In this document: positions 32,905-51,323 of the stretch, piece after piece | Layout of the letters: each line of letters starts with the position of its first letter | Numbering within the stretch: position 1 is the stretch's first letter | From: an uncultured Anaerolineaceae bacterium | Lineage (GTDB): Bacteria > Chloroflexota > Anaerolineae > Anaerolineales > Anaerolineaceae | Length of the DNA: 64,000 nt | Direction: 5' to 3' | NCBI GenBank assembly: GCA_964536465.1 | Contig: CAZHXQ010000001.1 | Span: forward strand, 6,913-70,912 | Notes under the pieces: model-generated | Databases searched by the model: none | The model's input: the letters and a program-made list of their open reading frames with translations, nothing else | Told to the model about the DNA's origin: nothing | Position numbers and translations under genes: made by a program

Positions 32905-32906
32905 GT

Positions 32907-33917: not shown

Positions 33918-33918
33918 A

Positions 33919-34839
33919 ATGACCCGCTTGCTGATCACCGGCGTGAGTGGATTGCTGGGTATCAACCTGGCGCTTGAGGCTGTCGGGGCGGGCCACGAAG
34001 TAGTTGGTTGGACTCACAGCCGTTCTTTGAAGGGTGTGCCTTTCGAGCAGGAGACCGTCTGCTTGGAAGACCTTGAGGTTCTGCCTGTGGCACTTCAGAG
34101 AGCCCGCCCGGAGGCGCTCATCCATTGCGCCGCGATTGCCAACCTGGATGAAGCGGAACAAAATCCCCAGCACACTTTTTTGGTTAACGCCCAGGCACCT
34201 GGCGTGTTAGCGCGTGCCTCAAAGGAAGCAGGTATCCCTTTTGTCCAAATTTCCACCGACGCGGTCTTTGACGGCAGTAAGGGTAACTACAACGAAGAAG
34301 ACCCGCCGAACCCACAAAACACCTACGCGCAATCAAAACTGGCTGGAGAACAGGCTGTTCGGAATGAATATCCGGAGGCGCTGGTGGCCAGGGTCGTTTT
34401 TTATGGTTGGTCGCTCAGCGGCAAGCGCAGCCTGGCGGAGTTCTTTTTTAATAATCTCAGCCAGGGCAAGCAGGTCAAGGGCTTCACTGACTCGATCTTC
34501 AGCCCCCTCTACGCGCGAGATTTGGCCGAACTGCTCCTGGAAGCCCTCTCGAAAAATCTGCGGGGAACCTACCATTTCTTTTCCAGAGAGAGTTTGAGCA
34601 AATATGATTTTGGCATGGCCATGGCGGATCGCTTCGGTTTAGATCAAAACCTGATCACAGCAGTAAAAACCGCCCAGGGCAACTTGAATATCCCCCGTTC
34701 GCTCAATCTCAGTGCAAGCAGCGCTAAACTCTGTACAGCGCTTGGCCATGAAATTCCGGGTGTGGTCGAGGGACTGGAGCGAATGTTTGCAGACTGTCAG
34801 CACGGTCTGCGCAAACGCCTGGCAGCTTTTTTGGCATAA
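33919..34839 (+). CDS. RmlD-like NAD(P)-dependent sugar 4-ketoreductase
   Basis: LITGVSGLLG, CAAIANLDEAE, STDAVFDG and YAQSKLAGEQ match the RmlD substrate-binding-domain family. No rmlA, rmlB or rmlC lies nearby. Confidence 0.75.
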   Translation: MTRLLITGVSGLLGINLALEAVGAGHEVVGWTHSRSLKGVPFEQETVCLEDLEVLPVALQRARPEALIHCAAIANLDEAEQNPQHTFLVNAQAPGVLARASKEAGIPFVQISTDAVFDGSKGNYNEEDPPNPQNTYAQSKLAGEQAVRNEYPEALVARVVFYGWSLSGKRSLAEFFFNNLSQGKQVKGFTDSIFSPLYARDLAELLLEALSKNLRGTYHFFSRESLSKYDFGMAMADRFGLDQNLITAVKTAQGNLNIPRSLNLSASSAKLCTALGHEIPGVVEGLERMFADCQHGLRKRLAAFLA

Positions 34840-34850
34840 TAGGAGAAAAT

Positions 34851-35918: not shown

Positions 35919-35921
35919 CCT

Positions 35922-37022
35922 ATGCGAATAATGTACTTGACCCGTTCAGATTCTGTTCATGATCAGCGTTTCATGCAGACGCTGGCTGAAAGTGAGTTTG
36001 AGGCTTTTGTCTGGCGCTTACTTTCGGGTGATTACCCTACCCCTGAAGGAGTGACAACTTTAGATTGGCAGGGGATTGGCGGAGGTTTGCAAGCCTGGAA
36101 TTTGCCTTTCGCCCAGAGAAAGTTAGAGCAGGCCATTCGAGAGGTCCAACCCGATCTGATTCACGCCGGCCCGTTGCACGACCTGGCCTTTTTGGCTGCT
36201 AAGACAGGCTTTGCCAATCTTCTCTCGATGAGTTGGGGGTTCGATTTGATGAAAGATGTGCGGGTCGATAAGCTGACCGAACACCGCACCCGATTTGCCC
36301 TGCAGCGTTCCAAAGGTTTGATAACCGACGCCTACTGCTCTGCAGAGGCAGCCGCCGGTCTTGGTTTTCCCCGTGAAGATATCTGCATATTCCCCTGGGG
36401 TGTCAACTTGCAGCACTTCTCTCCTGCCAACGCGCGCAAGAGCGGTCTCGCCTGGCGGCAAAAAATGGGTTGGGAGGATAATTTGGTCCTGTTGTGCCTG
36501 CGCAGTTGGGAACCCAACTACGGGGTCGGCACGCTCCTGGCTGCTTTTGAAAAAGCGGCAGCTGAAAAGCAGAACTTGCGTCTGATATTACTGGGCGATG
36601 GCAGCCTGCATGACGAATACTTGCGAGTGTTAGAGGATGAGAGTTTCAAAGACAAAGTTTTTATCGGCGGTCGGGTTCCAAACCAGGAACTGGTCAAGTT
36701 TTATGGCGCTGCCGATGTGTATGTCACTCCCAGTCATGTGGACGGTTCTTCCGTCTCGCTGATGGAAGCCCTGGCTTGCGGGTTACCCACAATCGCCTCG
36801 GACATACCGGCTAACCTCGAATGGGTGTACCATAATGAAAACGGCTGGATTTTCCCTGACAATAATATTAACGCTCTCAGGGAGACCATTCTGAACTGCC
36901 ATCCAAACTTAGAAATGGCAGAACGCGCCAGGGCAACTGCTGAAAGCAAAGCCGACTGGCAAAAAAACCGGCAAATTTTGTTGGACTGTTACCGACAATT
37001 GCTGCCCAATGAAGGAAAATAA
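35922..37022 (+). CDS. Glycosyltransferase family 4 (GT-B)
   Basis: C-terminal ADVYVTPSHVDGSSVSLMEALACGLPTIASDIPANLEWV is the E-x7-E GT4 signature. Confidence 0.8.
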   Translation: MRIMYLTRSDSVHDQRFMQTLAESEFEAFVWRLLSGDYPTPEGVTTLDWQGIGGGLQAWNLPFAQRKLEQAIREVQPDLIHAGPLHDLAFLAAKTGFANLLSMSWGFDLMKDVRVDKLTEHRTRFALQRSKGLITDAYCSAEAAAGLGFPREDICIFPWGVNLQHFSPANARKSGLAWRQKMGWEDNLVLLCLRSWEPNYGVGTLLAAFEKAAAEKQNLRLILLGDGSLHDEYLRVLEDESFKDKVFIGGRVPNQELVKFYGAADVYVTPSHVDGSSVSLMEALACGLPTIASDIPANLEWVYHNENGWIFPDNNINALRETILNCHPNLEMAERARATAESKADWQKNRQILLDCYRQLLPNEGK

Positions 37023-37023
37023 A

Positions 37024-37656
37024 ATGAACAAAAAATTAATTTTGATTTTTGGTGTGCTGTTACTGGTTGTGACAGCCTGTAATTTCCCGGTTGGCAAAAA
37101 GACCGCCACCCCTATGCCCACCCCGACTCCGGATACGAGCATGCAGCTCTACTATGGCCAAGGTATGCAGATCATGCTGCCACCCAGTTACATTGCAGAA
37201 GACATCAAAACACAGCTCCCTAATATCATTGAAACGCTCACCAATCTGGTTGGCGACAGTGAAGGTTTTGCGCGTGACCTGATAAGGGAAATTGAAGGGA
37301 ATGTCGCCTGGTATGGTTTCGATGGTGATACGCCAGCGGTCTATCCGACCCGTTTGATCGTCATTAAGAATAAATCACTGGCGGCACTTCCGGTGGGTAT
37401 CATTACGCTGGGGCTGGAGCAGGTGCTGGGACGGAATCAGACCGAAGTGGACCGGGATTCACTGACCCTAAACGGACGCGATGTGACCCGCTTCACCTAT
37501 TCCAAAGACAGCAATGCCTTTGCCGCCTACCTCTTTAAAGAGCAGCACCGCCTGTGGATCAGTGTCTTCATAACTACCCCCGCGAATATGGCTGTTTCTT
37601 TGACCGACTACAACACCAGCATCGGCTCTATGCAAATTGACCCGATAGCGGAGTAA
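37024..37656 (+). CDS. Small lipoprotein with a Pro/Thr-rich linker, function unknown
   Basis: Start at ATG 37024. Lipobox LVVTAC, then the TATPMPTPTPDTS linker and a globular domain of about 170 aa. Confidence 0.6.
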   Translation: MNKKLILIFGVLLLVVTACNFPVGKKTATPMPTPTPDTSMQLYYGQGMQIMLPPSYIAEDIKTQLPNIIETLTNLVGDSEGFARDLIREIEGNVAWYGFDGDTPAVYPTRLIVIKNKSLAALPVGIITLGLEQVLGRNQTEVDRDSLTLNGRDVTRFTYSKDSNAFAAYLFKEQHRLWISVFITTPANMAVSLTDYNTSIGSMQIDPIAE

Positions 37657-37670
37657 TGATAAGGTAAAGC

Positions 37671-39374
37671 TTGAAAAAAGTTGCAATCATCCAAGCCAGG
37701 TTAGGGTCGAGCCGCCTGCCAGGGAAGGTTCTCTTGGAGGTGGCAGGCGAGCCGATGCTCGCGCGAGTGTTCGCGCGGGTGCGCCAGGCCAGGCTAATTG
37801 ATGAAATCATGGTTGCCACGACTAGCGATTTAACTGACGATCCACTTGTGCAGTATTGCCAAGACGCCGACATTCCTTGCTATCGAGGAGATCAATTTGA
37901 CGTACTGGACCGCTTTTATCAGGCAGCCCGGCAAGCGCAGGCAGATGTGATTGTGCGCATCACAGCCGACTGCCCTATGATCGCGCCCGAAGAGATCGAT
38001 CGGGTTGTGCAGGCTTATCTTTCCAGCGGAGCTGATTTCGCTGCTAACCGCCTCCCTCCGCCATTTGAACGCACCACACCGATTGGTATGGATACAGAGG
38101 TCTGCTCAATGAAAGCCTTGGAAACAGCCTGGCGAGAGGCAGAGCAGCCCTACCAGCGCGAACACGTTATGCCCTATCTTTATGATACTGAGGGGCGTTT
38201 CAAAGTACAGGTTGTTGACCTGGAGCCCGCCCACGGGAACCTGCGTTTCACAGTAGACACCGCAGAAGATCTGCACCTGGCAAATCTGATTTATGCTGCT
38301 TTTGAAGGTCGGAACGATTTTAGCCTGGAAGAACTGCTGGCAGAAAACGAACGCCATCCCGAGTGGCAGCAGCAAGTTGCCCTGGTCCACCATAAAGACC
38401 TCTATGAAACCGACCAGAGGGCTAAACCAGCCAGCAAACAAAAGGACGAGGATCCACTTCAAGCAACACAGAATCAACCTATGCGCAACGAAGCGCCTGT
38501 TATCTCTTGCCCGTTATGCGGCAGCGATAGAATCAAAGACTTTGAGCGGGTCGAATCGTTTGGCTACTCTCTTGAGTATCTCATCTGTCAGGATTGCGGT
38601 TTCGTTTTCCAAAACCCACAAACCAGCCAGGTGGCCAGTCCCGATTTCTATCAGCAGACCTACCGAAGGATCTATCAGGCCAGCGAACAGCCAACTAAAA
38701 AAGATCTTTTCCAGCAAACCCAGCGCGCCAACAACCAGGTCGAATGGCTGAAAAGTCTCAGTGTGGAAAAATTCGAGAATGTTCTCGACATTGGCGCCTC
38801 CTCCGGTTTACTTCTGGAAACTTTCGCGAGGCGATTTGATGCAAATGTTGTCGGCGTGGAACCTGGCGATGCTTACCGCGCAATGGCAGAAACCAAAGGG
38901 CTCTGCATGTATAACTCCATCGACACGTTGATTGCTTCCCACCCAAAGCGCTTTGAACTGGTCACGCTCATGCACGTTCTGGAACATCTTGAAAATCCCC
39001 GGCAGGTATTGGAGCAGATTCGGAAAGAGCTGCTCAACCAAGAGGGACTGCTTTTATTAGAAGTGCCCAATTTCTATGGGCATGATTGTTACGAGCTGGC
39101 GCATCTCTCCTGCTTTACTGAGCACACGCTGCTCGAAATGCTCCGGCAGGCGGGTTTCGAACCGGTCGCTTTCCGCAAGCACGGCATGCCGCGCTCGGAA
39201 ATTTTGCCGCTTTATCTGACCCTTCTTGCCAGACCCGCTGCGGAAATCGACAGAAGATCACCCAGGCCGGAAAAGGGCGTCAGGTTGAAAAGACGCCTGG
39301 CTATGCTCAAACGAAAAATTCTGACCCGGCTCAATCCGGGCAGCGCATGGCTGCCTGTGGAGGGTAAATTGTGA
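37671..39374 (+). CDS. Fusion of an SpsF/PseF-like cytidylyltransferase with a zinc-ribbon and a class I SAM methyltransferase
   Basis: N-terminal AIIQARLGSSRLPGKVL and RITADCPMI (CTP_transf_3 type). The middle has CPLCGS...CQDCG. The C-terminal part has VLDIGASSGLL, LVTLMHVLEHLENP and LLLEVPN. TTG start. Confidence 0.75.
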   Translation: MKKVAIIQARLGSSRLPGKVLLEVAGEPMLARVFARVRQARLIDEIMVATTSDLTDDPLVQYCQDADIPCYRGDQFDVLDRFYQAARQAQADVIVRITADCPMIAPEEIDRVVQAYLSSGADFAANRLPPPFERTTPIGMDTEVCSMKALETAWREAEQPYQREHVMPYLYDTEGRFKVQVVDLEPAHGNLRFTVDTAEDLHLANLIYAAFEGRNDFSLEELLAENERHPEWQQQVALVHHKDLYETDQRAKPASKQKDEDPLQATQNQPMRNEAPVISCPLCGSDRIKDFERVESFGYSLEYLICQDCGFVFQNPQTSQVASPDFYQQTYRRIYQASEQPTKKDLFQQTQRANNQVEWLKSLSVEKFENVLDIGASSGLLLETFARRFDANVVGVEPGDAYRAMAETKGLCMYNSIDTLIASHPKRFELVTLMHVLEHLENPRQVLEQIRKELLNQEGLLLLEVPNFYGHDCYELAHLSCFTEHTLLEMLRQAGFEPVAFRKHGMPRSEILPLYLTLLARPAAEIDRRSPRPEKGVRLKRRLAMLKRKILTRLNPGSAWLPVEGKL

Positions 39375-40321: not shown

Positions 40322-41343
40322 TGGCCCGTTTAGGTACCAACCCTTCCCGAGGACAACAACTTGAGTTCACCCCGCCGCGTGTGACTGTAGCTGTTTTAGT
40401 CTACGAGCCCCACCGTTCTGGTTACTTTCAACATCGACTGGATGTCACCAAGCTGACGATTGACAGCATCCTTAAAAACACCCCCGAACCTTTTGAATTA
40501 TTGGTTTTTGACAATGGTTCCTGCGATGCCATGACCGATTACCTACGTGATCTGAATCAGGCAGGCAGCATCGACACGCTGGTCCTATCTGGTCAAAATA
40601 TTGGCAAGTTGAACGCGCTCTGGCGCATTACCAATCTCGCCCAGGGTGAGCTGATCGCCTACAGTGACGATGACGTTTATCACATGTCAGGCTGGCTGCC
40701 GAAGCACTTGGAAATTCTCGACACCTATCCTGGTGTCGGGGCAATCACTGGCTTTTATATCAAACAGCGTGTTGTGATGAGCTCTGAAAGTACGCTCGCA
40801 TGGGTTGCAAAATATGAAAAAGAACACCCCGGCCTGGTCCAGAGAGGCAATTTGATTCCGCGAAAGTGGGAGGAAGAATACATGAACAATTCCGGCCGCA
40901 CCCAGGAGCGCTATCAGGGAGAAGTGCAGGGTGTGGACGATATCATTGTCGATTACCAGGGTGTTAAAGCCTGGGTGTCCGCTCATCATTTTCAGGTTCT
41001 GACACCCAAGAAGATCTTGCTGGAGGTTCTCCCCGAGATGTTGGATGAGGGATGGAGCAACCAGATGATGGGCCGAATGGTGGAGATGGACGATCGCATA
41101 GACGCCAAAGGTTACCTGCGCCTGACCACGTATGAACAGACCATGCGCCTGCTGGGCAACGCGATTGACGATGAAGTAAAAGCCCTGGCTGCCGGCGATG
41201 GCATCAGCACCCATGCTGCTCTGGCTGAAAATGCACCTGAAAAATCAGCTGGTCTTTGGAATAACGAACTGATCCAAAAAGTGGCCCAACGTTTGCTGAA
41301 CTGGCTCTATCGTGGTTTGCACCAAAACAGGAGGAGTGAATGA
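40321..41343 (+). CDS. Glycosyltransferase family 2
   Basis: VTVAVLVYE..., LLVFDNGSCDAMTDYL and AYSDDDVY (the DxD motif). TGATG start/stop overlap. Confidence 0.75.
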   Translation: MARLGTNPSRGQQLEFTPPRVTVAVLVYEPHRSGYFQHRLDVTKLTIDSILKNTPEPFELLVFDNGSCDAMTDYLRDLNQAGSIDTLVLSGQNIGKLNALWRITNLAQGELIAYSDDDVYHMSGWLPKHLEILDTYPGVGAITGFYIKQRVVMSSESTLAWVAKYEKEHPGLVQRGNLIPRKWEEEYMNNSGRTQERYQGEVQGVDDIIVDYQGVKAWVSAHHFQVLTPKKILLEVLPEMLDEGWSNQMMGRMVEMDDRIDAKGYLRLTTYEQTMRLLGNAIDDEVKALAAGDGISTHAALAENAPEKSAGLWNNELIQKVAQRLLNWLYRGLHQNRRSE

Positions 41344-42341
41344 AATTTCTGATCGCTGGTTTAGGTTCGATTGGGCGCAGACACCTGCGCAATCTGAAAG
41401 CGCTTGGGCAGACTGACCTGCTGCTCTACCGCACCCATCAGGCTACTCTTCCAGACACGGATCTGGTGGGTTACCCCACATACACGGATTTGGATGAGGC
41501 TCTGGCAGAAAAACCAGATGGAGTGATCGTCTCGAATCCTACCGCTTTGCATTTGGAAGTTGCGACTGCCGCGGCTAAAGCAGGCGCGGCTCTGCTGATT
41601 GAAAAGCCCGTCTCAGACAGCCTGCTCGGTATTCGCGAATTGCAGGAGGCTCTTGACGAAGCAGGCAAGCCCGCTTTAATCGGCTTTCATTTGCGCTATC
41701 ATCCAGTTTTACGACAGATAAAAGCGTTAATCGAGTCTGACCAGCTGGGCAAGCCGTTTAAGGCGCATGCTCATTGGGGAGAATACTTACCCGGCTGGCA
41801 CCCCTGGGAAGACTACCGCCATTCCTACGCGGCCAGAGCCGACCTGGGTGGCGGCGCTCTCAATACGCTTTCCCATCCAATTGATTATCTGCGCTGGATG
41901 ATGGGAGAGGTGCGCGCGCTGTCTGCCAGCCTGGATAACCTCAGTCAACTGGAACTCGATGTTGAAGATAACGTGGAATTGCTCCTTAAATTCCACTCGG
42001 GCTCAATGGCCACCGTCCATCTGGATTATTACCAGCGCCCTCCTTCCCATACACTGGAGATCATATTTGAGCGAGGTCGCATCCGTTGGGACAATGGTTC
42101 GGGCTGTGTGGTGATTGAAAATGTGGAAATAGGCGAGAAAGTCGTTGATACACTTTGTCCCCCCGAGGGTTTCAAACGCAACGATATGTTCCTGGCTGAG
42201 ATGGAAGATTTCGTCCAGCTTTGCCGGGGAGAGCGCATTGACCACTGTACGTTAGCTGATGGTAAGCGCGTGCAGAAGATCGTTGAAGTGGCGCGCCAAA
42301 GTTCTTCGCAGAGCAGCTGCTCAGTAAGGCTGCCCTCTTAA
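41340..42341 (+). CDS. Gfo/Idh/MocA-family NAD(P)-dependent oxidoreductase
   Basis: MKFLIAGLGSIGRRHLRNL Rossmann N-terminus, the EKP motif (LLIEKPV), and a C-terminal alpha/beta domain. Confidence 0.85.
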   Translation: MKFLIAGLGSIGRRHLRNLKALGQTDLLLYRTHQATLPDTDLVGYPTYTDLDEALAEKPDGVIVSNPTALHLEVATAAAKAGAALLIEKPVSDSLLGIRELQEALDEAGKPALIGFHLRYHPVLRQIKALIESDQLGKPFKAHAHWGEYLPGWHPWEDYRHSYAARADLGGGALNTLSHPIDYLRWMMGEVRALSASLDNLSQLELDVEDNVELLLKFHSGSMATVHLDYYQRPPSHTLEIIFERGRIRWDNGSGCVVIENVEIGEKVVDTLCPPEGFKRNDMFLAEMEDFVQLCRGERIDHCTLADGKRVQKIVEVARQSSSQSSCSVRLPS

Positions 42342-42389
42342 AAACCGCCTGATGGTAAAATCCAATCCATCAACAGGCAGAAAAAGAAA

Positions 42390-43217
42390 ATGACAGAATC
42401 GATATTTAAGAAGTTTGACCTGACCGGAAAAACCGCTCTCGTGACGGGTGCGGCTGGTCTGCTGGGCAGGCAATTCAGCCTGGCGCTGGCACAAGCCGGA
42501 GCAAACGTGGTGTTGGCAGACCTCAATGAGGATATTGCCGCGCAAAATTCCGTTGAATTAAAGCATCTGGGTCTCAGCTCAGTGGCAGTTAAGGTTGACG
42601 TGACCGACCCATTCTCAACCAAAGCCATGGTTCAACATGCGCTGACCACTTATGGCCGCTTGGATGTGTTGGTCAACAGTGCCGCGTTGGATCCAAAATT
42701 TGATCCTGCCAATCTTAGCGACCAGGAAGCAAACGCTTTTGAGACCTACTCGTTAGAATCCTGGCGTAAGGCACTGAATGTAAATCTGACCGGCATGTTT
42801 CTGGCTTCCCAGGCAGCGGTCATTCCCATGCTCGTACAAGGACAGGGTGTGATTGTGAACATTTCTTCGATTTATGGCCTGGTGGGCCCGGACCAACGTC
42901 TCTATGAGCAAGCTGATAATTCCAGACAATTTAAGCCAGTGTTTTATTCGGTCACCAAAGCTGGCGTACTCGGCTTCACCCGTTATCTGGCGGCTTACTA
43001 TGCCGGAAAAAACATCCGTGTCAACGCTCTCACTCCTGGTGGTGTATACAACAATCACGACCAGGTTTTTACTGACCAATACAGTGCCCGTACCGTGCTG
43101 GGACGCATGGCCGATCTGGATGAAATGAACGCCGCAATGCTGTTTTTATGCAGTGAGGCCAGTTCCTACATGACTGGCAGTAACCTGGTAGTTGATGGAG
43201 GATGGACGGCATGGTAG
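42390..43217 (+). CDS. Short-chain dehydrogenase/reductase (SDR)
   Basis: TALVTGAAGLLG, NSAA, SSIYG and YSVTKAG (YxxxK). Confidence 0.85.
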   Translation: MTESIFKKFDLTGKTALVTGAAGLLGRQFSLALAQAGANVVLADLNEDIAAQNSVELKHLGLSSVAVKVDVTDPFSTKAMVQHALTTYGRLDVLVNSAALDPKFDPANLSDQEANAFETYSLESWRKALNVNLTGMFLASQAAVIPMLVQGQGVIVNISSIYGLVGPDQRLYEQADNSRQFKPVFYSVTKAGVLGFTRYLAAYYAGKNIRVNALTPGGVYNNHDQVFTDQYSARTVLGRMADLDEMNAAMLFLCSEASSYMTGSNLVVDGGWTAW

Positions 43218-44449
43218 ATCGCCCGGAAGTGTTAGCCCTGATACCCGCCCGCGGTGGTTCCAAGGGCATCCCGCGCAAAAACCTGCGAGATTTTGCCGGG
43301 GCACCGCTGATCGTCTACAGCATCGCCGCGGCTTTGCAGTCCGAACTGGTCACCCGCGTTATTGTTTCGACCGACGACCACGAGATCGCCAAAGTGGCGC
43401 GTGCCTGGGGCGCGGAAGTGCCTTTTATGCGACCGGACCAATTTGCTCAGGATGACACCACGGACCTACCTGTCTTTGAGCATGCCCTGCAATGGCTGCA
43501 AAAGAACCAGGGTTATTTGCCCGAAATCGTAATCCAATTACGACCCACTTCACCTATTAGACCGGTAGGGCTACTGGATGAAGCTATCATAAAACTCATT
43601 GCTCACCCTGAAGCGGACTGCGTACGCGGGGTGGTCCCCTCGGGTCAAAACCCCTTCAAGATGTGGCGGATTAATCGCGAGGGCCAGCTGGAGCCCCTGT
43701 TAGAGGTTGCCGGGCTTCGTGAGCCCTACAACGCGCCCAGGCAAGCGCTCCCGCAGACCTATTGGCAAACCGGGCACATTGACGCGATCCGTTCAACTAC
43801 CATATTAACCAAGCACAGTCTGACGGGTGATTTGATATTGCCTTTGATGATCGACCCTTTGTATACCGTGGATATTGACACGCCAGATGATTTTTTGACC
43901 TCAGCAAGGTTAATCAGCGACCCGCGCATCAAGGCGGTCGACCCACTCAAAAGTCGCCGTCAATTTCCCAGCGAAGTAAGCCACCTGATTATGGATTTTG
44001 ACGGTGTGCTCAGCGATGATTTGGTATACGTAGACCAGGACGGACGTGAAAGCGTTTGCTGCAGTCGTTCTGATGGGTTTGGCATCGATTTGCTTAAAGA
44101 ATCAACCGCTACCCACCCACTGATCCTCTCAAGGGAAGTTAACCCAGTGGTGAGTGCCCGCGCGCGCAAGCTTGATATAGAGGTTTTTCAATCGGTTAAT
44201 AATAAAGACCTGGCGCTGCAAGCCTTGATAAAAGAAAGAAATCTGGACCCTGCTAAAATCATCTATATCGGCAACGACTTGAATGATCTGGCAGTTTTAC
44301 CTTTTGTGGGATACTTTGCCTGTCCGGCTGATGCCCACCCTCAGGTGATCAGGCAGGCAGATATCGTCCTGAAACACCCTGGAGGTAGAGGGGCGATTCG
44401 TGAACTGGTTGAAAAAATCTTGGAAGAACAAAGAAAAGTCATTAAATAA
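43202..44449 (+). CDS. Fusion of an acylneuraminate cytidylyltransferase (NeuA-type CMP-nonulosonate synthetase) with a KdsC-like HAD-IIIA phosphatase
   Basis: N-terminal ALIPARGGSKGIPRKNL and QLRPTSPIR. The C-terminal part has IMDFDGVLSDD (HAD motif I), DGFGIDLLK and YIGNDLNDL (motif III/IV). Confidence 0.8.
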   Translation: MDGMVDRPEVLALIPARGGSKGIPRKNLRDFAGAPLIVYSIAAALQSELVTRVIVSTDDHEIAKVARAWGAEVPFMRPDQFAQDDTTDLPVFEHALQWLQKNQGYLPEIVIQLRPTSPIRPVGLLDEAIIKLIAHPEADCVRGVVPSGQNPFKMWRINREGQLEPLLEVAGLREPYNAPRQALPQTYWQTGHIDAIRSTTILTKHSLTGDLILPLMIDPLYTVDIDTPDDFLTSARLISDPRIKAVDPLKSRRQFPSEVSHLIMDFDGVLSDDLVYVDQDGRESVCCSRSDGFGIDLLKESTATHPLILSREVNPVVSARARKLDIEVFQSVNNKDLALQALIKERNLDPAKIIYIGNDLNDLAVLPFVGYFACPADAHPQVIRQADIVLKHPGGRGAIRELVEKILEEQRKVIK

Positions 44450-44473
44450 ATGCACAAAGGAAACTAAACAAAG

Positions 44474-45535
44474 ATGATCGATATCGAATTTTATAAAAAA
44501 GTAGGCGATCTAAAAAAACGACTCAGTGCAGGTGAAAACTTCTCACGGTTAGAACTTGAAGGGTTGATTGAAAGTTATCGCAGCCCTTATCCTGTGGTTT
44601 ACAACATAGAAACTACCAATGCCTGTAATATGCGCTGTGAGATGTGCCCCCGTACTACCATGATGACCAGGCCCGTTGAAACCATGGCGCCAGAGCTTTT
44701 CAAAAGCGTCATTGATCAGCTTTCTCCCTTCAGCCCGGAACAATTGGCTCGCTGGGAGGATTTTGCTGAAGGCTATTACGGTGTGCCCAGGAATGGTATG
44801 AGCGAAAACCATTTCTTCCTTTACATCATCCCCAGAGTGATTGTGCTCCATGGTTATGGCGACCCGCTTTTGGATAAGAATATCCCTACCTATGTCAGGT
44901 GGATGACTGAACGCGGTCTTGAGTCTTACTTCTCATGTAATCCTGCTAACATCAATATGGCCCGCACGATTGAAACCTTTGAAAATGGCCTGGGATATGT
45001 AAAGTATTCCATCGAAAGCGTGGATGACCTTCGTCACAAAAGTGTGCGTGGTGAAGCCTCTAATTTTACTGAAGCCTACCGCAACATCTTGAGTCTGCTC
45101 GAACTGAAAGCCCAAAGAAATTACAAAACCACGATCGTGATCACTATGATCAACCTCAATAAGCCCTGGCAGCAGGAAGAATATCAGAAGTTGGTTGAAG
45201 CCTTTGAGGGGCTTGACGTCTATGTTTACCTCAAGAGTCAGGACCAAACCTGGTACGAAGACAACCGGCAGACCACAGAATCCATTCACTGGCAGGAATT
45301 TTGCCAGTTCCCATGGTCTTCCATGACCGTCAAATCGAATGGGGAATGTGCTGAATGCGTCGAAGATTTCAACAATGAAATTATCCTGGGTGATACCCGG
45401 ACGCAAAGCCTTTATGATATTTGGAATGGAAAAGCCTACCAAAACTTCCGCAATGACCATTTCAACCTAAAACCTGGAATCAAGTGCACAGAGCAATGCG
45501 ACATGCACCTGATTGGCAGCTACTTAGCTCAGTAG
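44474..45535 (+). CDS. Radical SAM enzyme with a C-terminal SPASM/twitch-like Cys cluster
   Basis: NIETTNACNMRCEMCPR is the CxxxCxxC motif. VLHGYGDPLL is the GGE-like motif. C-terminal cysteines are CQFPW...SNGECAECVEDF...CTEQC. Confidence 0.85.
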   Translation: MIDIEFYKKVGDLKKRLSAGENFSRLELEGLIESYRSPYPVVYNIETTNACNMRCEMCPRTTMMTRPVETMAPELFKSVIDQLSPFSPEQLARWEDFAEGYYGVPRNGMSENHFFLYIIPRVIVLHGYGDPLLDKNIPTYVRWMTERGLESYFSCNPANINMARTIETFENGLGYVKYSIESVDDLRHKSVRGEASNFTEAYRNILSLLELKAQRNYKTTIVITMINLNKPWQQEEYQKLVEAFEGLDVYVYLKSQDQTWYEDNRQTTESIHWQEFCQFPWSSMTVKSNGECAECVEDFNNEIILGDTRTQSLYDIWNGKAYQNFRNDHFNLKPGIKCTEQCDMHLIGSYLAQ

Positions 45536-45543
45536 AGGAATTT

Positions 45544-46419
45544 ATGAGAAATACTATCAAAATTGGCGAACGAGTCATAGGCAACGGCTATCCGATTTAT
45601 ATCGTTGGAGAGATTGGCATCAACCATAATGGCGAACTTGAAGTGGCGAAAAGCCTGATGCTGGCCGCAAAGAAGGCTGGCATCGATGCGGTCAAATTCC
45701 AAAAACGGACGCCTGAAATCTGCGTCCCCCCGGAACAACAGTCACAGATGCGTGATACCCCCTGGGGTTATATCAGTTACCTTGACTACCGCTATAAGGT
45801 TGAATTTGACGAGGCTGACTATACCGAGATTAATCGTTATGCCAAAGAGTTGGATCTCGATTGGTTTGCCTCTTCATGGGATATTCCCTCACTTGAGTTT
45901 ATGGAAAAATTCAACCCACCTGTTCACAAAATCCCTTCGGCGCTGTTGACTGACCGAGAATTACTGCGAGCTCACCGCGACACGGGAAAACCCCTGATTG
46001 TTTCAACTGGCATGTCCACCATGGAGCAGATCAAAGAAGCGGTGGGCATCCTGGGGGAAGACAACATAGTTTTATGCCATACTACCAGTTCCTATCCCTG
46101 CCCCCCTGAAGAATTGAATCTGCGCATGATTCAAACCCTGTGTGACACGTTCAACTGTCCCATAGGTTATTCCGGGCATGAGGTTGGGTTGGTTCCAACC
46201 GTAATTGCCTCAGCGTTGGGAGCCTGCCTGGTAGAGCGTCATATCACTCTCGACAGGGCTATGTGGGGGTCCGATCAAAGCGCGTCAGTGGAACCACAAG
46301 GTATTTCCACGCTGGTCAAATACATACGTGTGACTGAAAAGTCACTTGGTGATGGAATAAAGAAGGTCTACGACAGCGAAAAATCTTCTCTCAAAAAGCT
46401 ACGACGGATCAGCCAGTAA
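45544..46419 (+). CDS. NeuB-family nonulosonate (or nonulosonate-9-phosphate) synthase lacking the SAF domain
   Basis: Start at ATG 45544. PIYIVGEIGINHNGELEVAKSLMLAAKKAGIDAVKFQKR, FASSWD, HKIPSA, YSGHE and VERHITLDR. The 291-aa protein ends before the usual C-terminal SAF/antifreeze-like domain. Confidence 0.8.
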   Translation: MRNTIKIGERVIGNGYPIYIVGEIGINHNGELEVAKSLMLAAKKAGIDAVKFQKRTPEICVPPEQQSQMRDTPWGYISYLDYRYKVEFDEADYTEINRYAKELDLDWFASSWDIPSLEFMEKFNPPVHKIPSALLTDRELLRAHRDTGKPLIVSTGMSTMEQIKEAVGILGEDNIVLCHTTSSYPCPPEELNLRMIQTLCDTFNCPIGYSGHEVGLVPTVIASALGACLVERHITLDRAMWGSDQSASVEPQGISTLVKYIRVTEKSLGDGIKKVYDSEKSSLKKLRRISQ

Positions 46420-46420
46420 G

Positions 46421-48043
46421 ATGAATCCAACCAGTTTGCTTCGGCGCGCAGCTAACCGGCTAATGCGGAAAGCAGTTCAGCGAAAAAATGACGCGGTCCT
46501 GCGAACCATGGCGCGCCAGGTGCTCGAGAATACACCGGCAAGCGATCAGAAGCCCATTATTTTTTTTGATGCCTCAACGCGACTTAGTGGGTTGAGCCTG
46601 AACGCCGGCTTTGCCATCCTGAGCGCATGGTCATTGAGCCTGCAGGGTGTACCCATTATTCATTTCGTTTGTAGGGCTGGTTTGAGACCTTGTGTCCTGG
46701 GCACAAACCGGACAGACCCTGATGCTGCCCCGCCTTGTGCTGAATGCCTGAGGCAGTCAGAAGCAATCTTTTCGGACAGCCAGGTCAGATATTTTGATTT
46801 CCGAGAGGATCATGACCTGGCGGCGAAACTTGCGGGTCTGTCTCTGGATGAGTTGATGTCATTTGACTATCAGGGGCTGCCCCTGGGGAAATTGGTTTTG
46901 CCATCGATTCGTTGGATCTTGCGACGGCACCACTTGACGGAAGAACCGTACACCTTAAAGTTGTATAAAAACTACCTGAAGTCGGCCTGGTCGCTGGCAG
47001 GTCAATTTGAACTGCTGCTTAACCAGAGCCAGCCACAGGCTGTGGTGGTCTTCAATGGGATGCAGTATCCGGAAGCCACTGCCAGGTGGATCGCCCTCCA
47101 ACGGGGTATTCGCGTCGTCAGCCACGAGGTTGGCATGCAGCCGCTGAGCGCTTACTTCACAGATGGAGACGCCACTGCCTATGACCTGGACATTCCGGGG
47201 GGATTTCAACTCAACCAAAGCCAAAATCGAAAACTGGACGCTTACCTGAGCGCACGGTTTAAAGGTGACTTTCATATGGCGGGTGTGCAGTTCTGGCCTG
47301 AAATGAGCCAGCTCAGCCCAGAATTCCTCGAGTTTGCCGGGCGCTTCAAACAGATGGTTCCGCTTTTTACAAACGTAATTTTTGATACCAGCCAACCCCA
47401 TGCCAATGTCATTTTTGATGATATGTTTAGCTGGTTGGATGAGGTATTAGAGATTGTTAAAAAACATCCGGATACACTTTTTGTTATCCGCGCCCACCCC
47501 GATGAAGCTCGAGCCGGAAAGGCCAGCGAAGAGTCTGTAGCGCAATGGGCTAAGGACCGTCAAATCGGCATGATTGCGAACCTGCGCTTTGTACCTCCCC
47601 AGGAGTTTATCAACTCCTATGATCTGATTCGGATGGCGAAATTTGTTCTGATCTACAATTCCACCATCGGTATGGAGGCATCCATCCTGGGGGCAGGTGT
47701 GCTCTCTGCTGGTAAAGCCCGCTACAGCTCCTCAGGGGTGGTCTGGTTTCCTCAAGACAAGCCAGCCTACTTTGCAAAGCTGGAAGAATTGCTCCACACC
47801 GGTGTAGTGGAAGTCCCTGCGCACTTTAAATTGAATGCACGGCGCTTCCTCTATTGGCAGCTCTATCACTCCTCATTAGGTTTTGAGGATTACCTTGAGC
47901 CAGATGGCGTGTGGGCGGGGTATGTGAAGCTGAAAAATTTTGATTGGCGAAGCCTCTTGCCAGCGCACTCTGCCACCATGGCGACCATCAGCGATGGCCT
48001 TTTGCGCCATGGAGACTTTATGCTCAAGGAGGGTCGAGAATGA
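46421..48043 (+). CDS. KpsC/KpsS-like (Capsule_synth-type) putative ulosonic-acid transferase, paralog 2
   Basis: 540 aa. VIRAHPDE ... VLIYNSTIGMEASILGAGV is the same motif pair as in 30359..32014. A Cys-rich insert is present (CRAGLRPC...CAEC). Confidence 0.55.
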   Translation: MNPTSLLRRAANRLMRKAVQRKNDAVLRTMARQVLENTPASDQKPIIFFDASTRLSGLSLNAGFAILSAWSLSLQGVPIIHFVCRAGLRPCVLGTNRTDPDAAPPCAECLRQSEAIFSDSQVRYFDFREDHDLAAKLAGLSLDELMSFDYQGLPLGKLVLPSIRWILRRHHLTEEPYTLKLYKNYLKSAWSLAGQFELLLNQSQPQAVVVFNGMQYPEATARWIALQRGIRVVSHEVGMQPLSAYFTDGDATAYDLDIPGGFQLNQSQNRKLDAYLSARFKGDFHMAGVQFWPEMSQLSPEFLEFAGRFKQMVPLFTNVIFDTSQPHANVIFDDMFSWLDEVLEIVKKHPDTLFVIRAHPDEARAGKASEESVAQWAKDRQIGMIANLRFVPPQEFINSYDLIRMAKFVLIYNSTIGMEASILGAGVLSAGKARYSSSGVVWFPQDKPAYFAKLEELLHTGVVEVPAHFKLNARRFLYWQLYHSSLGFEDYLEPDGVWAGYVKLKNFDWRSLLPAHSATMATISDGLLRHGDFMLKEGRE

Positions 48044-48720
48044 AACTGGAGAGAATTGTAGCGCTGGTACCGATGCGTCATGATTCCAAGCGCGTGCCCG
48101 GAAAGAACTATCGGTCGATGTGTGGAAAGCCACTTTATGCTCATATCATCAAGACGCTGCTCAACTGCCCCGAGATCGCTGAGGTGGTGGTCGATACCGA
48201 TTCGCCCACGATCATCGACGGCTTAGCCAGGGATTACCCCCAGGTAAAGGTATTGCTGCGGCCGGAAGAATTACGCCCTGATACTACCCCCACAAACGAG
48301 ATTCTGCTATACGATACCGCCAAGGTGCCAGCCGACCTCTATCTGCAGACCCATTCAACCAATCCGCTGCTGAAGGCTGAAACGGTTTCCAGAGCTATTA
48401 TTCAACTTCGAAATCTATACCCTGAATATGACAGCCTATTCAGCGTTACACGCCTGCAGACACGCCTCTGGGATCAACTTGGCAGAGCCATCAATCACAA
48501 TCCGGCCGTCCTGCTGCGTACGCAAGATCTACCACCAATCTATGAAGAGAACTCTTGTTTGTATCTTTTCACAAGAGAGACGCTGCTTACTCATCGTAAC
48601 CGCATCGGCGAACGCCCATTTATGTTCGAGATGGATGCTCATGAGTCTACAGATATCGATGAAGAACTCGATTTTGTTATCGCTGAAATTTTGATGGAAA
48701 GACAAAAATCTACGAGGTAA
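48040..48720 (+). CDS. Acylneuraminate cytidylyltransferase-family protein (third CTP_transf_3 member)
   Basis: Start at ATG 48040 (ATGA overlap). VALVPMRHDSKRVPGKNYR, VVVDTDS and LQTHSTNPL. 226 aa. Confidence 0.75.
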   Translation: MKLERIVALVPMRHDSKRVPGKNYRSMCGKPLYAHIIKTLLNCPEIAEVVVDTDSPTIIDGLARDYPQVKVLLRPEELRPDTTPTNEILLYDTAKVPADLYLQTHSTNPLLKAETVSRAIIQLRNLYPEYDSLFSVTRLQTRLWDQLGRAINHNPAVLLRTQDLPPIYEENSCLYLFTRETLLTHRNRIGERPFMFEMDAHESTDIDEELDFVIAEILMERQKSTR

Positions 48721-48721
48721 T

Positions 48722-49702
48722 ATGAAAACCGTATTAATCACTGCCCCTTACATCCAACCCTCTATGCACCGCTTCACCCCCATTCTTGAGGCTTTTGGTC
48801 TGAACGTGATCATTCCAGAAGTAAATGAGAGGCTGGAAGTTGAGGAAATCATGCGATACGCAGGTCAGTTTGAAGGAACTATTTGTGGCGATGACCGCTA
48901 TACGGCGGAAGTTATCGCCGCCTGCTCGCCCCAACTCAAAGTTTTGTCTAAATGGGGCACCGGCATTGATGCGATGGACCAGGAAGCCGCCGAAAAGTAT
49001 GCCGTCAAAATTTTCCGCACACCAAACGCCTTCACGGTGCCTGTTTCTGAAAGCGTTATCGGAAGTATGCTCTGCTTTGCTCGCAACATACCTTGGATGG
49101 ACACGGCAATGAAGGCAGGTGAATGGAAAAAGATCTCAGGTCATACTTTGCTGGAATCGACCCTGGGTGTGATCGGCGTTGGCAATATTGGCAAGGCTGT
49201 CATTCGCCGGGCCCGCTCGTTTGGCATGAACATTTTGGGTAACGACATTGTTGAAATTGAACCAGATTTCATCATTGAACAAAAAATAGAGATGACCGAC
49301 CTGCAAGATCTGCTTGAACGTTCAGATTACATCAGCCTGAATACCTCCTTGAATCCCAGCTCTTATCATCTGATAAACGAAGAGACGCTCAAACACGTGA
49401 AACCCTCGGCTGTGCTGATTAACACCTGTCGCGGTCCGGTTGTCCACCAGGAGGCCTTGGTGCAGGCCCTCCAGGAAGGGCGTCTGCGGGGTGCCGCGCT
49501 GGATGTCTTTGAAAAAGAGCCTCTTCCTGCTGACAGCCCATTGAAAGAGATGAGCAATGTGCTGCTGTCACCTCACAATACCAACAGCAGCCCTTTCTTT
49601 TGGGAGCGGATTCATTGGAATTCAATCCGCAACCTGCTGATTGGCCTGGACATCCCTGTAGGAGATGTCAATAGTTTAAAGGCAATGGAAAAAACCTCTT
49701 AG
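48722..49702 (+). CDS. D-isomer-specific 2-hydroxyacid dehydrogenase (phosphoglycerate/glycerate dehydrogenase-like)
   Basis: LGVIGVGNIGKAV (GxGxxG), INTCRGPVV, ALDVFEKEP and SPHN. Confidence 0.85.
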   Translation: MKTVLITAPYIQPSMHRFTPILEAFGLNVIIPEVNERLEVEEIMRYAGQFEGTICGDDRYTAEVIAACSPQLKVLSKWGTGIDAMDQEAAEKYAVKIFRTPNAFTVPVSESVIGSMLCFARNIPWMDTAMKAGEWKKISGHTLLESTLGVIGVGNIGKAVIRRARSFGMNILGNDIVEIEPDFIIEQKIEMTDLQDLLERSDYISLNTSLNPSSYHLINEETLKHVKPSAVLINTCRGPVVHQEALVQALQEGRLRGAALDVFEKEPLPADSPLKEMSNVLLSPHNTNSSPFFWERIHWNSIRNLLIGLDIPVGDVNSLKAMEKTS

Positions 49703-49754
49703 ATGTCTTAACTGATATCTGTGTAAGCGGTAGAACTACGAAGTGAGGAATATT

Positions 49755-50519
49755 ATGCCTGAGAAAATGAGAACGGTTCTAATTACTGGCGCAGCAGGTG
49801 GTGTTGGGCAGGCAACGACCGCCTGTTTTGCCCAACTTGGTTTCAGGGTGATAGGGGTCGATCGTCAGCCCTGCTTCGGCGCATTCCCTGAAGACGGTCT
49901 CTACATCCAGGCTGACATTGCCTCGCCCGAAAACCTTGAAAAAGTCTATGAGAAAGCCAGAGGTTTCTCTGAGACCCTGCGAGTGCTGGTTAACAATGCC
50001 GCTTACCAGGTCACAAAGCCGCTCCTTGAGACCAGCCTGGAGGAATGGGACGCGGTCATGGACTCGAATTTGCGTTCGGTCTTCCTGGGTGTCAAGTTGG
50101 CTTACCCCATGCTCAAAGCCGATGGCGGGGGCGCTATCGTTAATGTTTCTTCAGTTCACGCGGTAGCTACGTCAGCCAACATTGCCGCTTACGCTGCCAG
50201 CAAAGGTGGTCTGCTGGCTCTGACCCGAGCCATGGCAATCGAATTTGCACCGGATAACATTCGCGTCAACGCTGTCTTGCCTGGCGCAGTGGACACTCCG
50301 ATGCTGCGGGCGGGTTTTCACCGCGGTCGCCAAAATGAATCGACTGAGGAAGAACAGCTGGCGGCCCTGGCTGCCAAAACCGTCAACGGTCGCGTCGCGC
50401 AACCCAGGGAAATTGCCTCGGTGATCTGCTTCCTGGCCGACAATTCTCGGTCCAGTTTTATCACCGGGCAGGGCTTGCTTGTGGACGGCGGAGCCACCTG
50501 CAGGTTGAGCACGGAGTGA
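49755..50519 (+). CDS. Short-chain dehydrogenase/reductase (SDR)
   Basis: Start at ATG 49755 after a GAGGAA RBS. VLITGAAGGVG, NNAA, SSVHA and YAASKGG. Confidence 0.85.
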   Translation: MPEKMRTVLITGAAGGVGQATTACFAQLGFRVIGVDRQPCFGAFPEDGLYIQADIASPENLEKVYEKARGFSETLRVLVNNAAYQVTKPLLETSLEEWDAVMDSNLRSVFLGVKLAYPMLKADGGGAIVNVSSVHAVATSANIAAYAASKGGLLALTRAMAIEFAPDNIRVNAVLPGAVDTPMLRAGFHRGRQNESTEEEQLAALAAKTVNGRVAQPREIASVICFLADNSRSSFITGQGLLVDGGATCRLSTE

Positions 50520-50528
50520 GTTTTTTAA

Positions 50529-51323
50529 ATGGATAGGTCTCTACAGGATCGTTTCATGAATCTGGCCCGACGTGGCTATGACGGCTTACGCCGTCTGCCC
50601 GAGCTGCCTGCAGCATATCTGCACCCTTGGCGAAGAGAATCAAAACGCCGCCTGACAGCTCTTAAAGATAGCCACGAGGGTGAACGCTGCTTTGTGGTTG
50701 GTAATGGGCCTTCACTAAAAAATACGGATTTATCCAGGCTTGAGGATGAGTTTTGTATCGGCATGAACCGCATCTTTTTAGCCGCGGATGAGTTAGGTTT
50801 TTGTCCGGATATCCTGGTCTGTGTCAATGACCTGGTAGTTGAACAGTCGGTGGCGGAATTCAACAATCTGCAAATGCCAAAATTTTTCTCCTGGCGCGCG
50901 CGTAAGTGGTTGACAATGGACCACTGGACACACTTTATTTACACCACCTACACCTCTCCAAAATTTTCAACAGATGTAACCGGCAGAGTCTGGGAAGGCG
51001 CAACGGTGACCAATGTTTGCCTGCAGCTGGCCTATCACATGGGCTTTAATGAAGTCATCTTGATCGGCGTGGATCACAGTTTCGCCACCAAGGGTCAACC
51101 CAACACCACCATACAGTCTCAGGGGGATGACCCAAACCACTTCTCAACCTCTTATTTCGGCAAAGGCTTCCGCTGGCAATTACCAGACCTTGAGACCTCA
51201 GAGTTGGGCTACCGCATGGCTCGTCGAGCCTATGAAAACGCCGGCCGAAAAATCGTCGATGCTACTATCGGCGGAAAACTGGATATCTTCGAAAAAGTTG
51301 ATTACGACAGCTTGTTTACTTAA
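50529..51323 (+). CDS. DUF115/MptE-like protein related to GT42 sialyltransferases and Maf flagellin nonulosonate transferases
   Basis: CFVVGNGPSLKNTDLSRLEDEFCIGMNRIF parallels the recalled CstII N-terminus (IAGNGPSLKEIDYSRLPNDFDVFRCNQFYF). ILIGVDHSF parallels YLSGIDFY. Confidence 0.6.
   Translation: MDRSLQDRFMNLARRGYDGLRRLPELPAAYLHPWRRESKRRLTALKDSHEGERCFVVGNGPSLKNTDLSRLEDEFCIGMNRIFLAADELGFCPDILVCVNDLVVEQSVAEFNNLQMPKFFSWRARKWLTMDHWTHFIYTTYTSPKFSTDVTGRVWEGATVTNVCLQLAYHMGFNEVILIGVDHSFATKGQPNTTIQSQGDDPNHFSTSYFGKGFRWQLPDLETSELGYRMARRAYENAGRKIVDATIGGKLDIFEKVDYDSLFT

Follow-up and report, generated by a model that had tools for sequence, protein, structure and literature searches.

Nonulosonic acids, among them sialic, legionaminic and pseudaminic acids and Kdn (deaminated neuraminic acid), cap cell surfaces and govern recognition by phage, by the immune system and between cells. 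All characterised routes to these sugars that are known to us proceed by steps dependent on nicotinamide adenine dinucleotide (NAD), pyridoxal phosphate (PLP) and acetyl-CoA. Here we describe a gene module from an uncultured Anaerolineaceae bacterium, located in a 64,000-nucleotide stretch of contig CAZHXQ010000001.1 (assembly GCA_964536465.1), hereafter the window, in which a radical S-adenosylmethionine (SAM) enzyme accompanies a NeuB-family synthase and a cytidylyltransferase–phosphatase fusion (Table 1). We put at about one half the probability that its six genes (41340-48043) make and transfer a cytidine monophosphate (CMP)-activated 3-deoxy-ulosonic acid through a phosphorylated Kdn-type route with tailoring by the radical SAM enzyme.

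The components of such a route all have precedents, namely NeuB, the KdsC-type phosphatase, the fusion of NeuA in the manner of CMAS, the PtmF/PtmA-type oxidoreductases and the 'twitch' dehydrogenases. What appears to be new is a radical SAM family as a conserved part of a nonulosonic acid pathway, which points to an undescribed oxygen-independent step. The initial annotation of this DNA knew of no characterised nonulosonate pathway that includes a radical SAM enzyme, and we likewise found none in curated family libraries and no paper that places one there in full-text searches of the literature, in which the matches to 'radical SAM' together with 'neuB' were screened in part.

Closest described systems

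The described system closest to the synthetic core of the module is the Kdn 9-phosphate (Kdn-9-P) pathway, which consists of Kdn-9-P synthase, a phosphatase and CMP-Kdn synthetase and starts from mannose 6-phosphate (Man-6-P) and phosphoenolpyruvate (PEP) (PMC6200933). As in Bacteroides thetaiotaomicron (synthase BT1714, phosphatase BT1713) and Prymnesium parvum, a NeuB synthase, a KdsC-type C0 phosphatase of the haloacid dehalogenase (HAD) family and a CMP-transferase are combined with neither NeuC nor an aminotransferase, and the HAD domain of the window matches the BT1713 structures (3e81). The known pathway, however, has no radical SAM enzyme, no Gfo/Idh/MocA oxidoreductase (Gfo) and no short-chain dehydrogenase/reductase (SDR); the window differs further in its NeuA-phosphatase fusion and in a synthase without the SAF domain.

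Fusions of this kind have a parallel in vertebrate CMAS, in which an N-terminal synthetase is followed by a C-terminal KdsC-like domain, and the two halves of the mouse protein (1qwj, 3ewi) are among the Protein Data Bank (PDB) matches of the window fusion. The C-terminal domain of mouse CMAS is reportedly catalytically inactive, whereas the window protein keeps an intact HAD motif I (DFDG), and its HAD domain stands in for the separate phosphatase of other phyla. For the synthase, the best PDB match (E 1.2e-34) is 6NCS, a 290-aa 'sialic acid synthetase' of the same length and also without SAF, although the similarity is only moderate.

For the radical SAM enzyme itself the nearest described relative is BtrN, the 2-deoxy-scyllo-inosamine dehydrogenase of butirosin biosynthesis, which is paired with the DegT-family aminotransferase BtrS. 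The two radical SAM proteins share a CX3CX2C core and a twitch domain with four cysteines for a single cluster, and in many phyla the relatives of the window gene directly adjoin a DegT gene, in the oxidise-then-transaminate arrangement of BtrN/BtrS. The window enzyme is nevertheless ~100 residues longer than BtrN and carries a helical extension of 40 residues at the N-terminus and, behind the SAM-cluster loop, an insertion of ~35 residues; its context is that of an ulosonic acid and not of an aminocyclitol, and its partner in the window is a reductase rather than an aminotransferase.

Oxidation followed by transamination is also known from the Kdo8N (8-amino Kdo) pathway of Shewanella, in which the oxidase KdnB and the aminotransferase KdnA act on free Kdo (3-deoxy-D-manno-octulosonic acid). 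KdnB is a metal/NAD enzyme of the alcohol-dehydrogenase fold, and Kdo is an eight-carbon sugar made by KdsA. Compared by description, this pathway shares with the logic proposed below for the DegT-bearing relatives a late hydroxyl oxidation, PLP-dependent transamination and CMP activation, but its oxidase is not a radical SAM enzyme and its sugar has eight carbons.

Finally, the legionaminic acid clusters of Campylobacter, Vibrio and Plesiomonas bring together an oxidoreductase (PtmF), an SDR (PtmA) and a NeuA-type cytidylyltransferase (LegF/PtmB) (PMC4481668). By domain family, these are the counterparts of the Gfo, SDR and NeuA of the window. The legionaminic clusters also encode LegB, LegC, LegG, LegH, LegI and PtmE and have neither a radical SAM enzyme nor a phosphatase, and the window proteins score below the equivalog cut-offs.

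Linkage of the radical SAM gene to neuB

The position of the radical SAM enzyme in a sugar acid pathway is argued for by its neighbours across genomes. For the survey, one genome was scanned for each GTDB species; of the 142 relatives obtained, 80 loci were kept and their open reading frames (ORFs) searched with the window proteins. In 56 of these loci, here termed full-flank, the sequence extends 4 kb or more to either side of the radical SAM gene. Within 6 kb of that gene, 77 of the 80 loci and all 56 full-flank loci have a NeuB gene, almost always of the short form (280-312 aa), and a KdsC-type HAD phosphatase and a CTP_transf_3 cytidylyltransferase each occur within the same distance in 51 of the 56. 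The initial annotation had proposed that the radical SAM protein is a genuine component of the nonulosonate module and not a peptide maturase, and had named a general link of the family to peptide maturation, or to cofactor genes unrelated to sugars, as the finding that would count against this. The survey supports the proposal, with neighbours that are NeuB, CMP-transferase and KdsC-type phosphatase, and never a precursor peptide, in more than 12 phyla.

The carriers are diverse. Forty-five loci belong to Anaerolineae, with radical SAM proteins 70-97% identical to that of the window, and the other 35 (59-67% identical) come from Negativicutes, Sedimentisphaerales, Desulfobulbia, Omnitrophota, Nitrospirae, Planctomycetia, Bacteroidales, Elusimicrobia, Syntrophobacterales, Coriobacteriia, Margulisiibacteriota and Geobacteraceae among the bacteria, and from Methanolinea and Nanoarchaeota among the archaea. 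Four gene orders can be distinguished. Type I, Gfo-(SDR)-NeuA/HAD-radical SAM-NeuB-transferase, is that of the window; it recurs in Methanolinea and, in rearranged form, in one genome of Sedimentisphaerales. Type II has the order HAD-CTP-transferase-DegT-radical SAM-NeuB, type III the order NeuB-HAD-thiamine diphosphate (TPP) enzyme-Gfo-radical SAM, and type IV the order CTP-transferase-radical SAM-SDR followed by a CBS-NeuB-SAF-AP_endonuc_2 fusion. As these orders differ by lineage, the association is not just inherited synteny.

More distant members of the family were found in related settings. One with 37% identity (L083) accompanies NeuB with SAF, NeuC, NeuA and DegT; another with 47% identity (L084) accompanies a short NeuB, a B12 radical SAM protein, an Aminotran_4 protein, two cytidylyltransferases and a gene of the GT29 sialyltransferase family; a third (31%) adjoins a cytidylyltransferase, and the most distant (27%; L082) has no NeuB and an Aminotran_3 aminotransferase next door. 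The L084 locus (1-14377) is an unusually rich sugar acid cluster, which also encodes a KdsA-like DAHP_synth_1 protein, an aldolase of the transaldolase/FSA family, an MptE-like protein and four methyltransferases.

The archaeal radical SAM proteins (L049 from Methanolinea, L064 from Nanoarchaeota and L066 from a further archaeon) are 59-63% identical to those of Anaerolineae, and the whole Gfo-radical SAM-NeuA/HAD-NeuB cassette is common to Anaerolineae and Methanolinea, which together imply horizontal transfer of the cassette between domains. A syntenic cluster is present in the cultured Pelolinea submarina MO-CFX1, so that the prediction can be tested directly.

Architecture of the radical SAM protein

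The protein of 353 aa carries the motif CNMRCEMC (CX3CX2C) at residues 51-58 and scores 36.6 bits against the Pfam Radical_SAM model (cut-off 29.5 bits), which places it in the superfamily; C51, C55 and C58 do not vary, either across 21 diverse homologues or across 81 close ones. At its C-terminus the Pfam SPASM model matches residues 277-339 with 49 bits but spans only the shared twitch part. When members with as little as 26% identity are aligned, only four C-terminal cysteines are invariant (C277, C295, C338 and C342), from which a single auxiliary cluster of the twitch type follows, not the seven-cysteine SPASM motif CX9-15GX4C...CX2CX5CX3C...C: the protein has the terminal CX3C and no CX2CX5CX3C. 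Thus, of the 'radical SAM/SPASM' assignment made initially, the radical SAM fold and the C-terminal cysteine cluster stand and the full SPASM domain does not. The invariant cysteines are predicted to provide three ligands for the SAM cluster and four for one fully ligated auxiliary cluster.

BtrN is the sole PDB sequence match to this protein (E 2.8e-10, 18% identity). C277 and C295 align residue for residue with two auxiliary-cluster ligands of BtrN, Cys169 and Cys187 in native numbering, and the auxiliary cysteines are spaced X17 and X42 as compared with X17 and X44 in BtrN. An AlphaFold2 model of high confidence (predicted local distance difference test, pLDDT, 92.9; predicted template modelling score, pTM, 0.91) shows an alternating beta/alpha barrel, for which Foldseek returned BtrN first (E 4e-12; TM 0.62, normalised to target) and DesII second (E 8e-11), with SuiB, SkfB, anSME and BlsE among the further matches. 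The substrates of BtrN, DesII and BlsE are sugars or cyclitols. In dehydrogenases such as BtrN and anSME the auxiliary cluster accepts an electron, a role that a fully cysteine-ligated cluster fits. The best reading of the enzyme is as a putative sugar carbinol dehydrogenase that would turn a hydroxyl into a ketone.

The family has ~1,500 close homologues, in ~20 full-length representative clusters at 50% clustering, and no family-specific model in NCBIfam or Pfam; the best equivalog, a tungsten-cofactor oxidoreductase maturase, is matched with 60 bits against a cut-off of 380 bits. Conservation is unusually high, with 120 of the 353 positions at least 97% identical across 81 sequences and 59-65% identity across the domains of life irrespective of the partner gene. 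Grouped by partner type the sequences form loose groups only, so that the partner does not define deep subfamilies, and near-invariance whatever the partner argues for one conserved reaction. The initial annotation had listed C-methylation, epimerisation, dehydrogenation and deoxygenation as candidates; BtrN-like dehydrogenation is now the best supported, with epimerisation or deoxygenation as its net outcome, and C-methylation is unlikely, the protein having no B12-binding domain.

Partner genes

A family of enzyme that uses ketones lies beside the radical SAM gene wherever the Anaerolineae are left: in all 35 of the non-Anaerolineae loci this neighbour is a DegT aminotransferase, an orthologous Gfo or a PtmA-like SDR, at a distance of up to ~100 bp in 29 loci and up to ~640 bp in the remaining six. 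These neighbours lend indirect support to a two-electron oxidation of a substrate carbinol to a ketone by the radical SAM enzyme, with one SAM consumed. A PseC/LegC-like DegT is the partner in 17 of the 35. In two such loci (L067 and L073) the interval from Wzt to a B12 radical SAM gene holds called genes for CTP-transferase, HAD, DegT, radical SAM and NeuB only, none of which encodes an NAD-dependent oxidoreductase to supply the ketone for DegT. By analogy, the DegT-radical SAM pairing would follow the logic of BtrN/BtrS, with radical carbinol oxidation and then transamination.

Reductases take this place elsewhere. In type III loci and in Methanolinea the radical SAM gene has a Gfo orthologue (185-343 bits) as its direct neighbour, and Gfo is the constant partner in Anaerolineae, present in all 30 full-flank loci. 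The SDR is more variable, being absent from Pelolinea-type loci, while its homologues adjoin the radical SAM gene in L046-L048, L051, L054, L055, L061 and L065. Its best NCBIfam model is PRK09186 (191 bits against a cut-off of 255 bits), the former 'flagellin modification protein A' model, and the NCBIfam PtmA model NF050062 matches the related SDR of L061 with 120 bits, below its 350-bit cut-off. We propose that Gfo reduces the ketone formed by the radical SAM enzyme and that the SDR is an optional second redox partner.

Other genes recur in particular loci. A 462-aa B12-binding radical SAM protein (L067 12752-14140), whose best weak NCBIfam matches are to methyltransferase and cyclase families, with 75 bits for the AprD4 family, occurs in 15 of the 35 non-Anaerolineae loci, which thus encode two different radical SAM enzymes. 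A 600-aa TPP enzyme resembling acetolactate synthase lies between HAD and the Gfo-radical SAM pair in L076 (7179-8981), L057, L069, L077-L079 and L081; YerE is a TPP enzyme that adds a two-carbon branch onto a keto-sugar, and the analogy suggests that the enzyme of these loci may do the same. In the deltaproteobacterial loci L051 (4505-6781), L055 and L061 (11931-14270) a 758-779-aa fusion of CBS, NeuB, SAF and xylose-isomerase-like (AP_endonuc_2) domains lies 3' of the radical SAM gene and the PtmA-like SDR gene, and these loci have no HAD phosphatase.

The phosphorylated route

The short synthase is covered by the Pfam model PF03102 over positions 3-241 of 241 (249 bits) and has no SAF domain by Pfam; against the sialic acid synthase models (TIGR03569/TIGR03586) it ends at model position 274 of 329 and scores 239.6 bits, under the equivalog cut-off of 399.65 bits. 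The His motifs for its metal ligands (GYSGHE, ERHIT) are visible in the alignment with 6ncs. Its longest ORF starts at a GTG at 45484 (311 aa); the ATG at 45544 was preferred because the resulting 291 aa match orthologues of 289-291 aa. That it stops before the SAF domain, as initially described, is confirmed, with the short form conserved in orthologues beside the radical SAM gene across phyla.

In the fusion protein CTP_transf_3 is found at residues 12-146 (PF02348, 78.8 bits), and the PseF model scores 161 bits against a cut-off of 205.7 bits. The PARGGSKGIPRKN motif of its NeuA half is intact, the nucleotide-binding pattern PARGGSKG..KN is present, and its PDB matches are the NeuA structures 6ifd and 9ftb (E values 5e-30 and 2e-29). 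The KdsC-like HAD domain (residues 257-413) matches KdsC, the B. thetaiotaomicron Kdn-9-P phosphatase 3e81 (E 1e-17) and 3mmz. The NeuA-HAD architecture of the initial annotation is present, in proteins of 408-439 aa, in all 30 full-flank Anaerolineae loci and in the archaeon of locus L049; the recurrence of both fusion and short NeuB in these loci means that they are not assembly artefacts.

The initial annotation took the fusion to imply a phosphorylated product of the synthase, and comparison supports this. A SAF-less NeuB occurs with a HAD phosphatase in 50 of 54 informative loci, while two loci with only a long, SAF-containing NeuB, and the NeuC-containing L083, have no HAD phosphatase; the co-occurrence supports a phosphorylated Kdn-type route. 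The absence of NeuC and of an aminotransferase, also noted at the outset, holds as well, as none of the 45 Anaerolineae-type loci has a DegT gene at a distance of 6 kb or less from the radical SAM gene and NeuC was not among the annotated operon genes of the window. No part of the legionaminic/pseudaminic set (NDP-sugar 4,6-dehydratase, aminotransferase, N-acetyltransferase, hydrolysing 2-epimerase) lies within the module, and a PseB-like dehydratase belongs to a separate module upstream. Given a short NeuB with HAD but neither DegT nor NeuC, the most economical reading for the window is, as first proposed, a Kdn-like product presumably made through a 9-phosphate.

For the transfer of the product the candidate is the 540-aa Capsule_synth-like protein (PF05159, 26.7 bits; NF046086, 33 bits), the gene for which comes after the short NeuB in all 30 full-flank Anaerolineae loci. 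A paralogue lies at 30359-32014, with the first NeuB module of the window.

Proposed pathway

In the pathway that we consider for the window, the SAF-less NeuB would condense PEP with a sugar 6-phosphate, in the simplest case Man-6-P or an isomer, and the KdsC-type HAD domain would take off the phosphate. The radical SAM enzyme would then abstract the carbinol hydrogen at one hydroxyl-bearing carbon to give a keto-sugar, with the second electron passing, as in BtrN, to the fully cysteine-ligated auxiliary [4Fe-4S] cluster. Reduction of the ketone by Gfo, with the PtmA-like SDR helping or following, would lead to an epimeric (or deoxy) Kdn-like acid, which the NeuA domain would convert to the CMP-sugar and the Capsule_synth-like protein would transfer to a glycan for export by the Wzm/Wzt of the operon. 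The chemistry of the radical step, its substrate and its order relative to the NeuB condensation are points that we infer. L083, which joins the non-phosphorylated NeuC/NeuB route to DegT and the radical SAM enzyme, hints at a target common to Kdn and Neu5Ac (N-acetylneuraminic acid), which would place the radical step after condensation, although this homologue is only 37% identical.

Extended to the whole family, the same scheme would make the radical SAM enzyme an oxygen-independent tailoring step of nonulosonic acid synthesis, shared by horizontal gene transfer among anaerobic bacteria and archaea, in which a Kdn- or Neu-type sugar acid or its hexose-phosphate precursor is converted to a keto intermediate and from there to lineage-specific products. 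We advance this wider reading tentatively, and would not ourselves back it at even odds. Its products would be nine-carbon acids that are amino (with DegT), epimeric or deoxy (with Gfo or SDR) or C-branched (with the TPP enzyme). In type II loci the ketone would be transaminated by DegT to an amino sugar acid; in types I and IV it would be reduced, with net epimerisation, or deoxygenation if elimination occurs; and in type III the TPP enzyme and Gfo would possibly extend it to a C-branched sugar acid.

Several points weigh against the pathway proposed for the window. The similarity to BtrN is remote (TMq 0.45 at the 18% identity given above), and twitch/SPASM enzymes catalyse reactions of many kinds. 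The need for a radical enzyme is questionable where NAD-dependent oxidoreductases exist already, and Gfo and SDR may act upstream and independently of it; PtmF and PtmA are reportedly assigned to precursor supply (glucosamine 6-phosphate, GlcN-6-P) in Campylobacter. The immediate neighbours of the radical SAM gene in the window are NeuA-HAD and NeuB rather than Gfo or SDR. The scores of the HAD domain (89-113 bits) lie under the cut-offs of the KdsC and Kdn-9-P phosphatase NCBIfam models and do not separate eight- from nine-carbon substrates.

If the pathway is as proposed, it would add a new enzyme class to nonulosonic acid synthesis, predict new sugar structures in little-studied anaerobes (Anaerolineae, Omnitrophota, Elusimicrobia and methanogens), and provide a third carbohydrate-oxidising twitch/SPASM radical SAM enzyme beside BtrN. 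The products, that is the amino, epimeric/deoxy and C-branched nine-carbon acids, would be chemically undescribed so far. A protein so small and so well conserved should be tractable.

Alternative roles for the radical SAM enzyme

The alternative that survives best, which we nonetheless regard as unlikely, is a lyase or dehydratase like DesII or AprD4, by which a neighbouring hydroxyl or amino group would be eliminated to a deoxy-keto sugar, to be reduced by Gfo or SDR or aminated by DegT. DesII is the second-best fold match of the model, and from what is generally known of the two systems, DesI/DesII is a pair of DegT-family and radical SAM proteins, resembling the DegT-radical SAM adjacency described here, and a reductase partner such as Gfo or SDR is what deoxygenation of the AprD4/AprD3 type needs. 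DesII, however, has no auxiliary cluster, whereas the present family keeps four auxiliary cysteines in the register of BtrN, and a DesII-type deamination needs a prior amine, for which no aminotransferase is encoded in the window. The AprD4 model of NCBIfam, for its part, matched the B12-type radical SAM protein of related loci and was not among the matches of the window protein.

A self-contained epimerase like NeoN, abstracting hydrogen from one face of the sugar and returning it to the other from a protein cysteine, with Gfo, SDR and DegT unrelated to it, appears improbable. Epimers are the main source of nonulosonic acid diversity, and the barrel cysteine C155, in the motif YFSCNP, is at least 97% conserved in 81 close homologues and, were the enzyme an epimerase, could donate the hydrogen atom. 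In more distant members, however, R, T, Y, M, V or A is found at this position, and a stand-alone epimerase would leave unexplained why all 35 non-Anaerolineae loci have a ketone-using neighbour of the aminotransferase or ketoreductase families.

It is far less probable still that the enzyme is a protein maturase, resembling anSME or a cofactor maturase, that modifies the SAF-less NeuB or another enzyme of the cluster. The two genes are within ~40 bp of each other in ~12 loci, the weak top NCBIfam match is the tungsten-cofactor maturase noted above, and anSME and SuiB are among the fold matches, but the best matches by both sequence and fold are small-molecule sugar enzymes. In type III loci, moreover, NeuB is 3.3-3.5 kb away and Gfo is the neighbour, and among the distant members the NeuB that accompanies the radical SAM gene in L083 contains SAF, and NeuB is missing from L082. 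That the gene encodes a maturase of ribosomally synthesised and post-translationally modified peptides, merely sitting in a glycan operon, can be dismissed in spite of the Pfam SPASM match, as only four of the seven SPASM cysteines are present, the NeuB neighbourhood is conserved, neither a conserved small ORF nor a peptide recognition element (RRE) domain was seen, and gaps of 24 and 8 bp on either side of the gene leave no room for a precursor-peptide ORF, of which the initial annotation had likewise seen none nearby.

The locus and its neighbouring modules

All five ORFs of the module as first annotated are intact on the + strand, and their order, coordinates and domains, the latter by Pfam and NCBIfam, agree with that description; the transferase gene follows as a sixth (Table 1). 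Spacing is tight, with gaps of -16 to +48 bp between the genes of the module.

Table 1. Genes of the radical SAM-containing module, with positions in the window
Feature	Position	Strand	Remarks
Gfo/Idh/MocA NAD(P) oxidoreductase	41340..42341	+	Pfam GFO_IDH_MocA N- and C-terminal domains; PtmF family
PtmA-like SDR	42390..43217	+	adh_short_C2, 171 bits; best NCBIfam model PRK09186
NeuA/PseF-like CMP-ulosonate synthetase (residues ~9-237) fused to KdsC-type HAD (residues ~257-413)	43202..44449	+	
Radical SAM enzyme with BtrN-like twitch domain; proposed sugar carbinol dehydrogenase	44474..45535	+	
SAF-less NeuB-family PEP-condensing ulosonate(-phosphate) synthase, 291 aa	45544..46419	+	
Probable transferase for CMP-activated sugar acid, 540 aa	46421..48043	+	Weak similarity to KpsC/KpsS 'Capsule_synth' and BFO_1060-like proteins

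The module lies inside a run of ~25 co-directional surface-glycan genes (27169 to 53144), which also encode Wzm/Wzt, several glycosyltransferases and a first NeuB module with SAF. A signal of horizontal transfer within the window was considered and rejected: the region 44-46 kb has a GC content of 0.46, but at third codon positions (GC3) its value is 0.53 against 0.54-0.58 in its neighbours, and as the difference vanishes there it is an effect of amino-acid composition.

The first module, upstream at 30359-39374, encodes a 551-aa Capsule_synth-like protein, a methyltransferase, a PseB/CapD-like dehydratase, an RmlD-like reductase and a NeuB with SAF, together with a family 1 glycosyltransferase (GT1), a lipoprotein-like ORF and a 567-aa CTP_transf_3-methyltransferase fusion. 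Aminotransferase, acetyltransferase and NeuC are all missing from it; for a NeuB that bears SAF such a precursor set is unusual, and the product may be a 9-deoxy, non-diamino sugar acid. This module is syntenic across Anaerolineae.

Downstream, at 48040-51323, a set of four genes encodes a third cytidylyltransferase of 226 aa, a D-2-hydroxyacid dehydrogenase, an SDR and an MptE-like (Maf-type) protein. The set may serve acyl or glycerate decoration or the supply of a third CMP-activated acid, and L001 from Pelolinea and L049 from the archaeon Methanolinea have the four genes in the same order.

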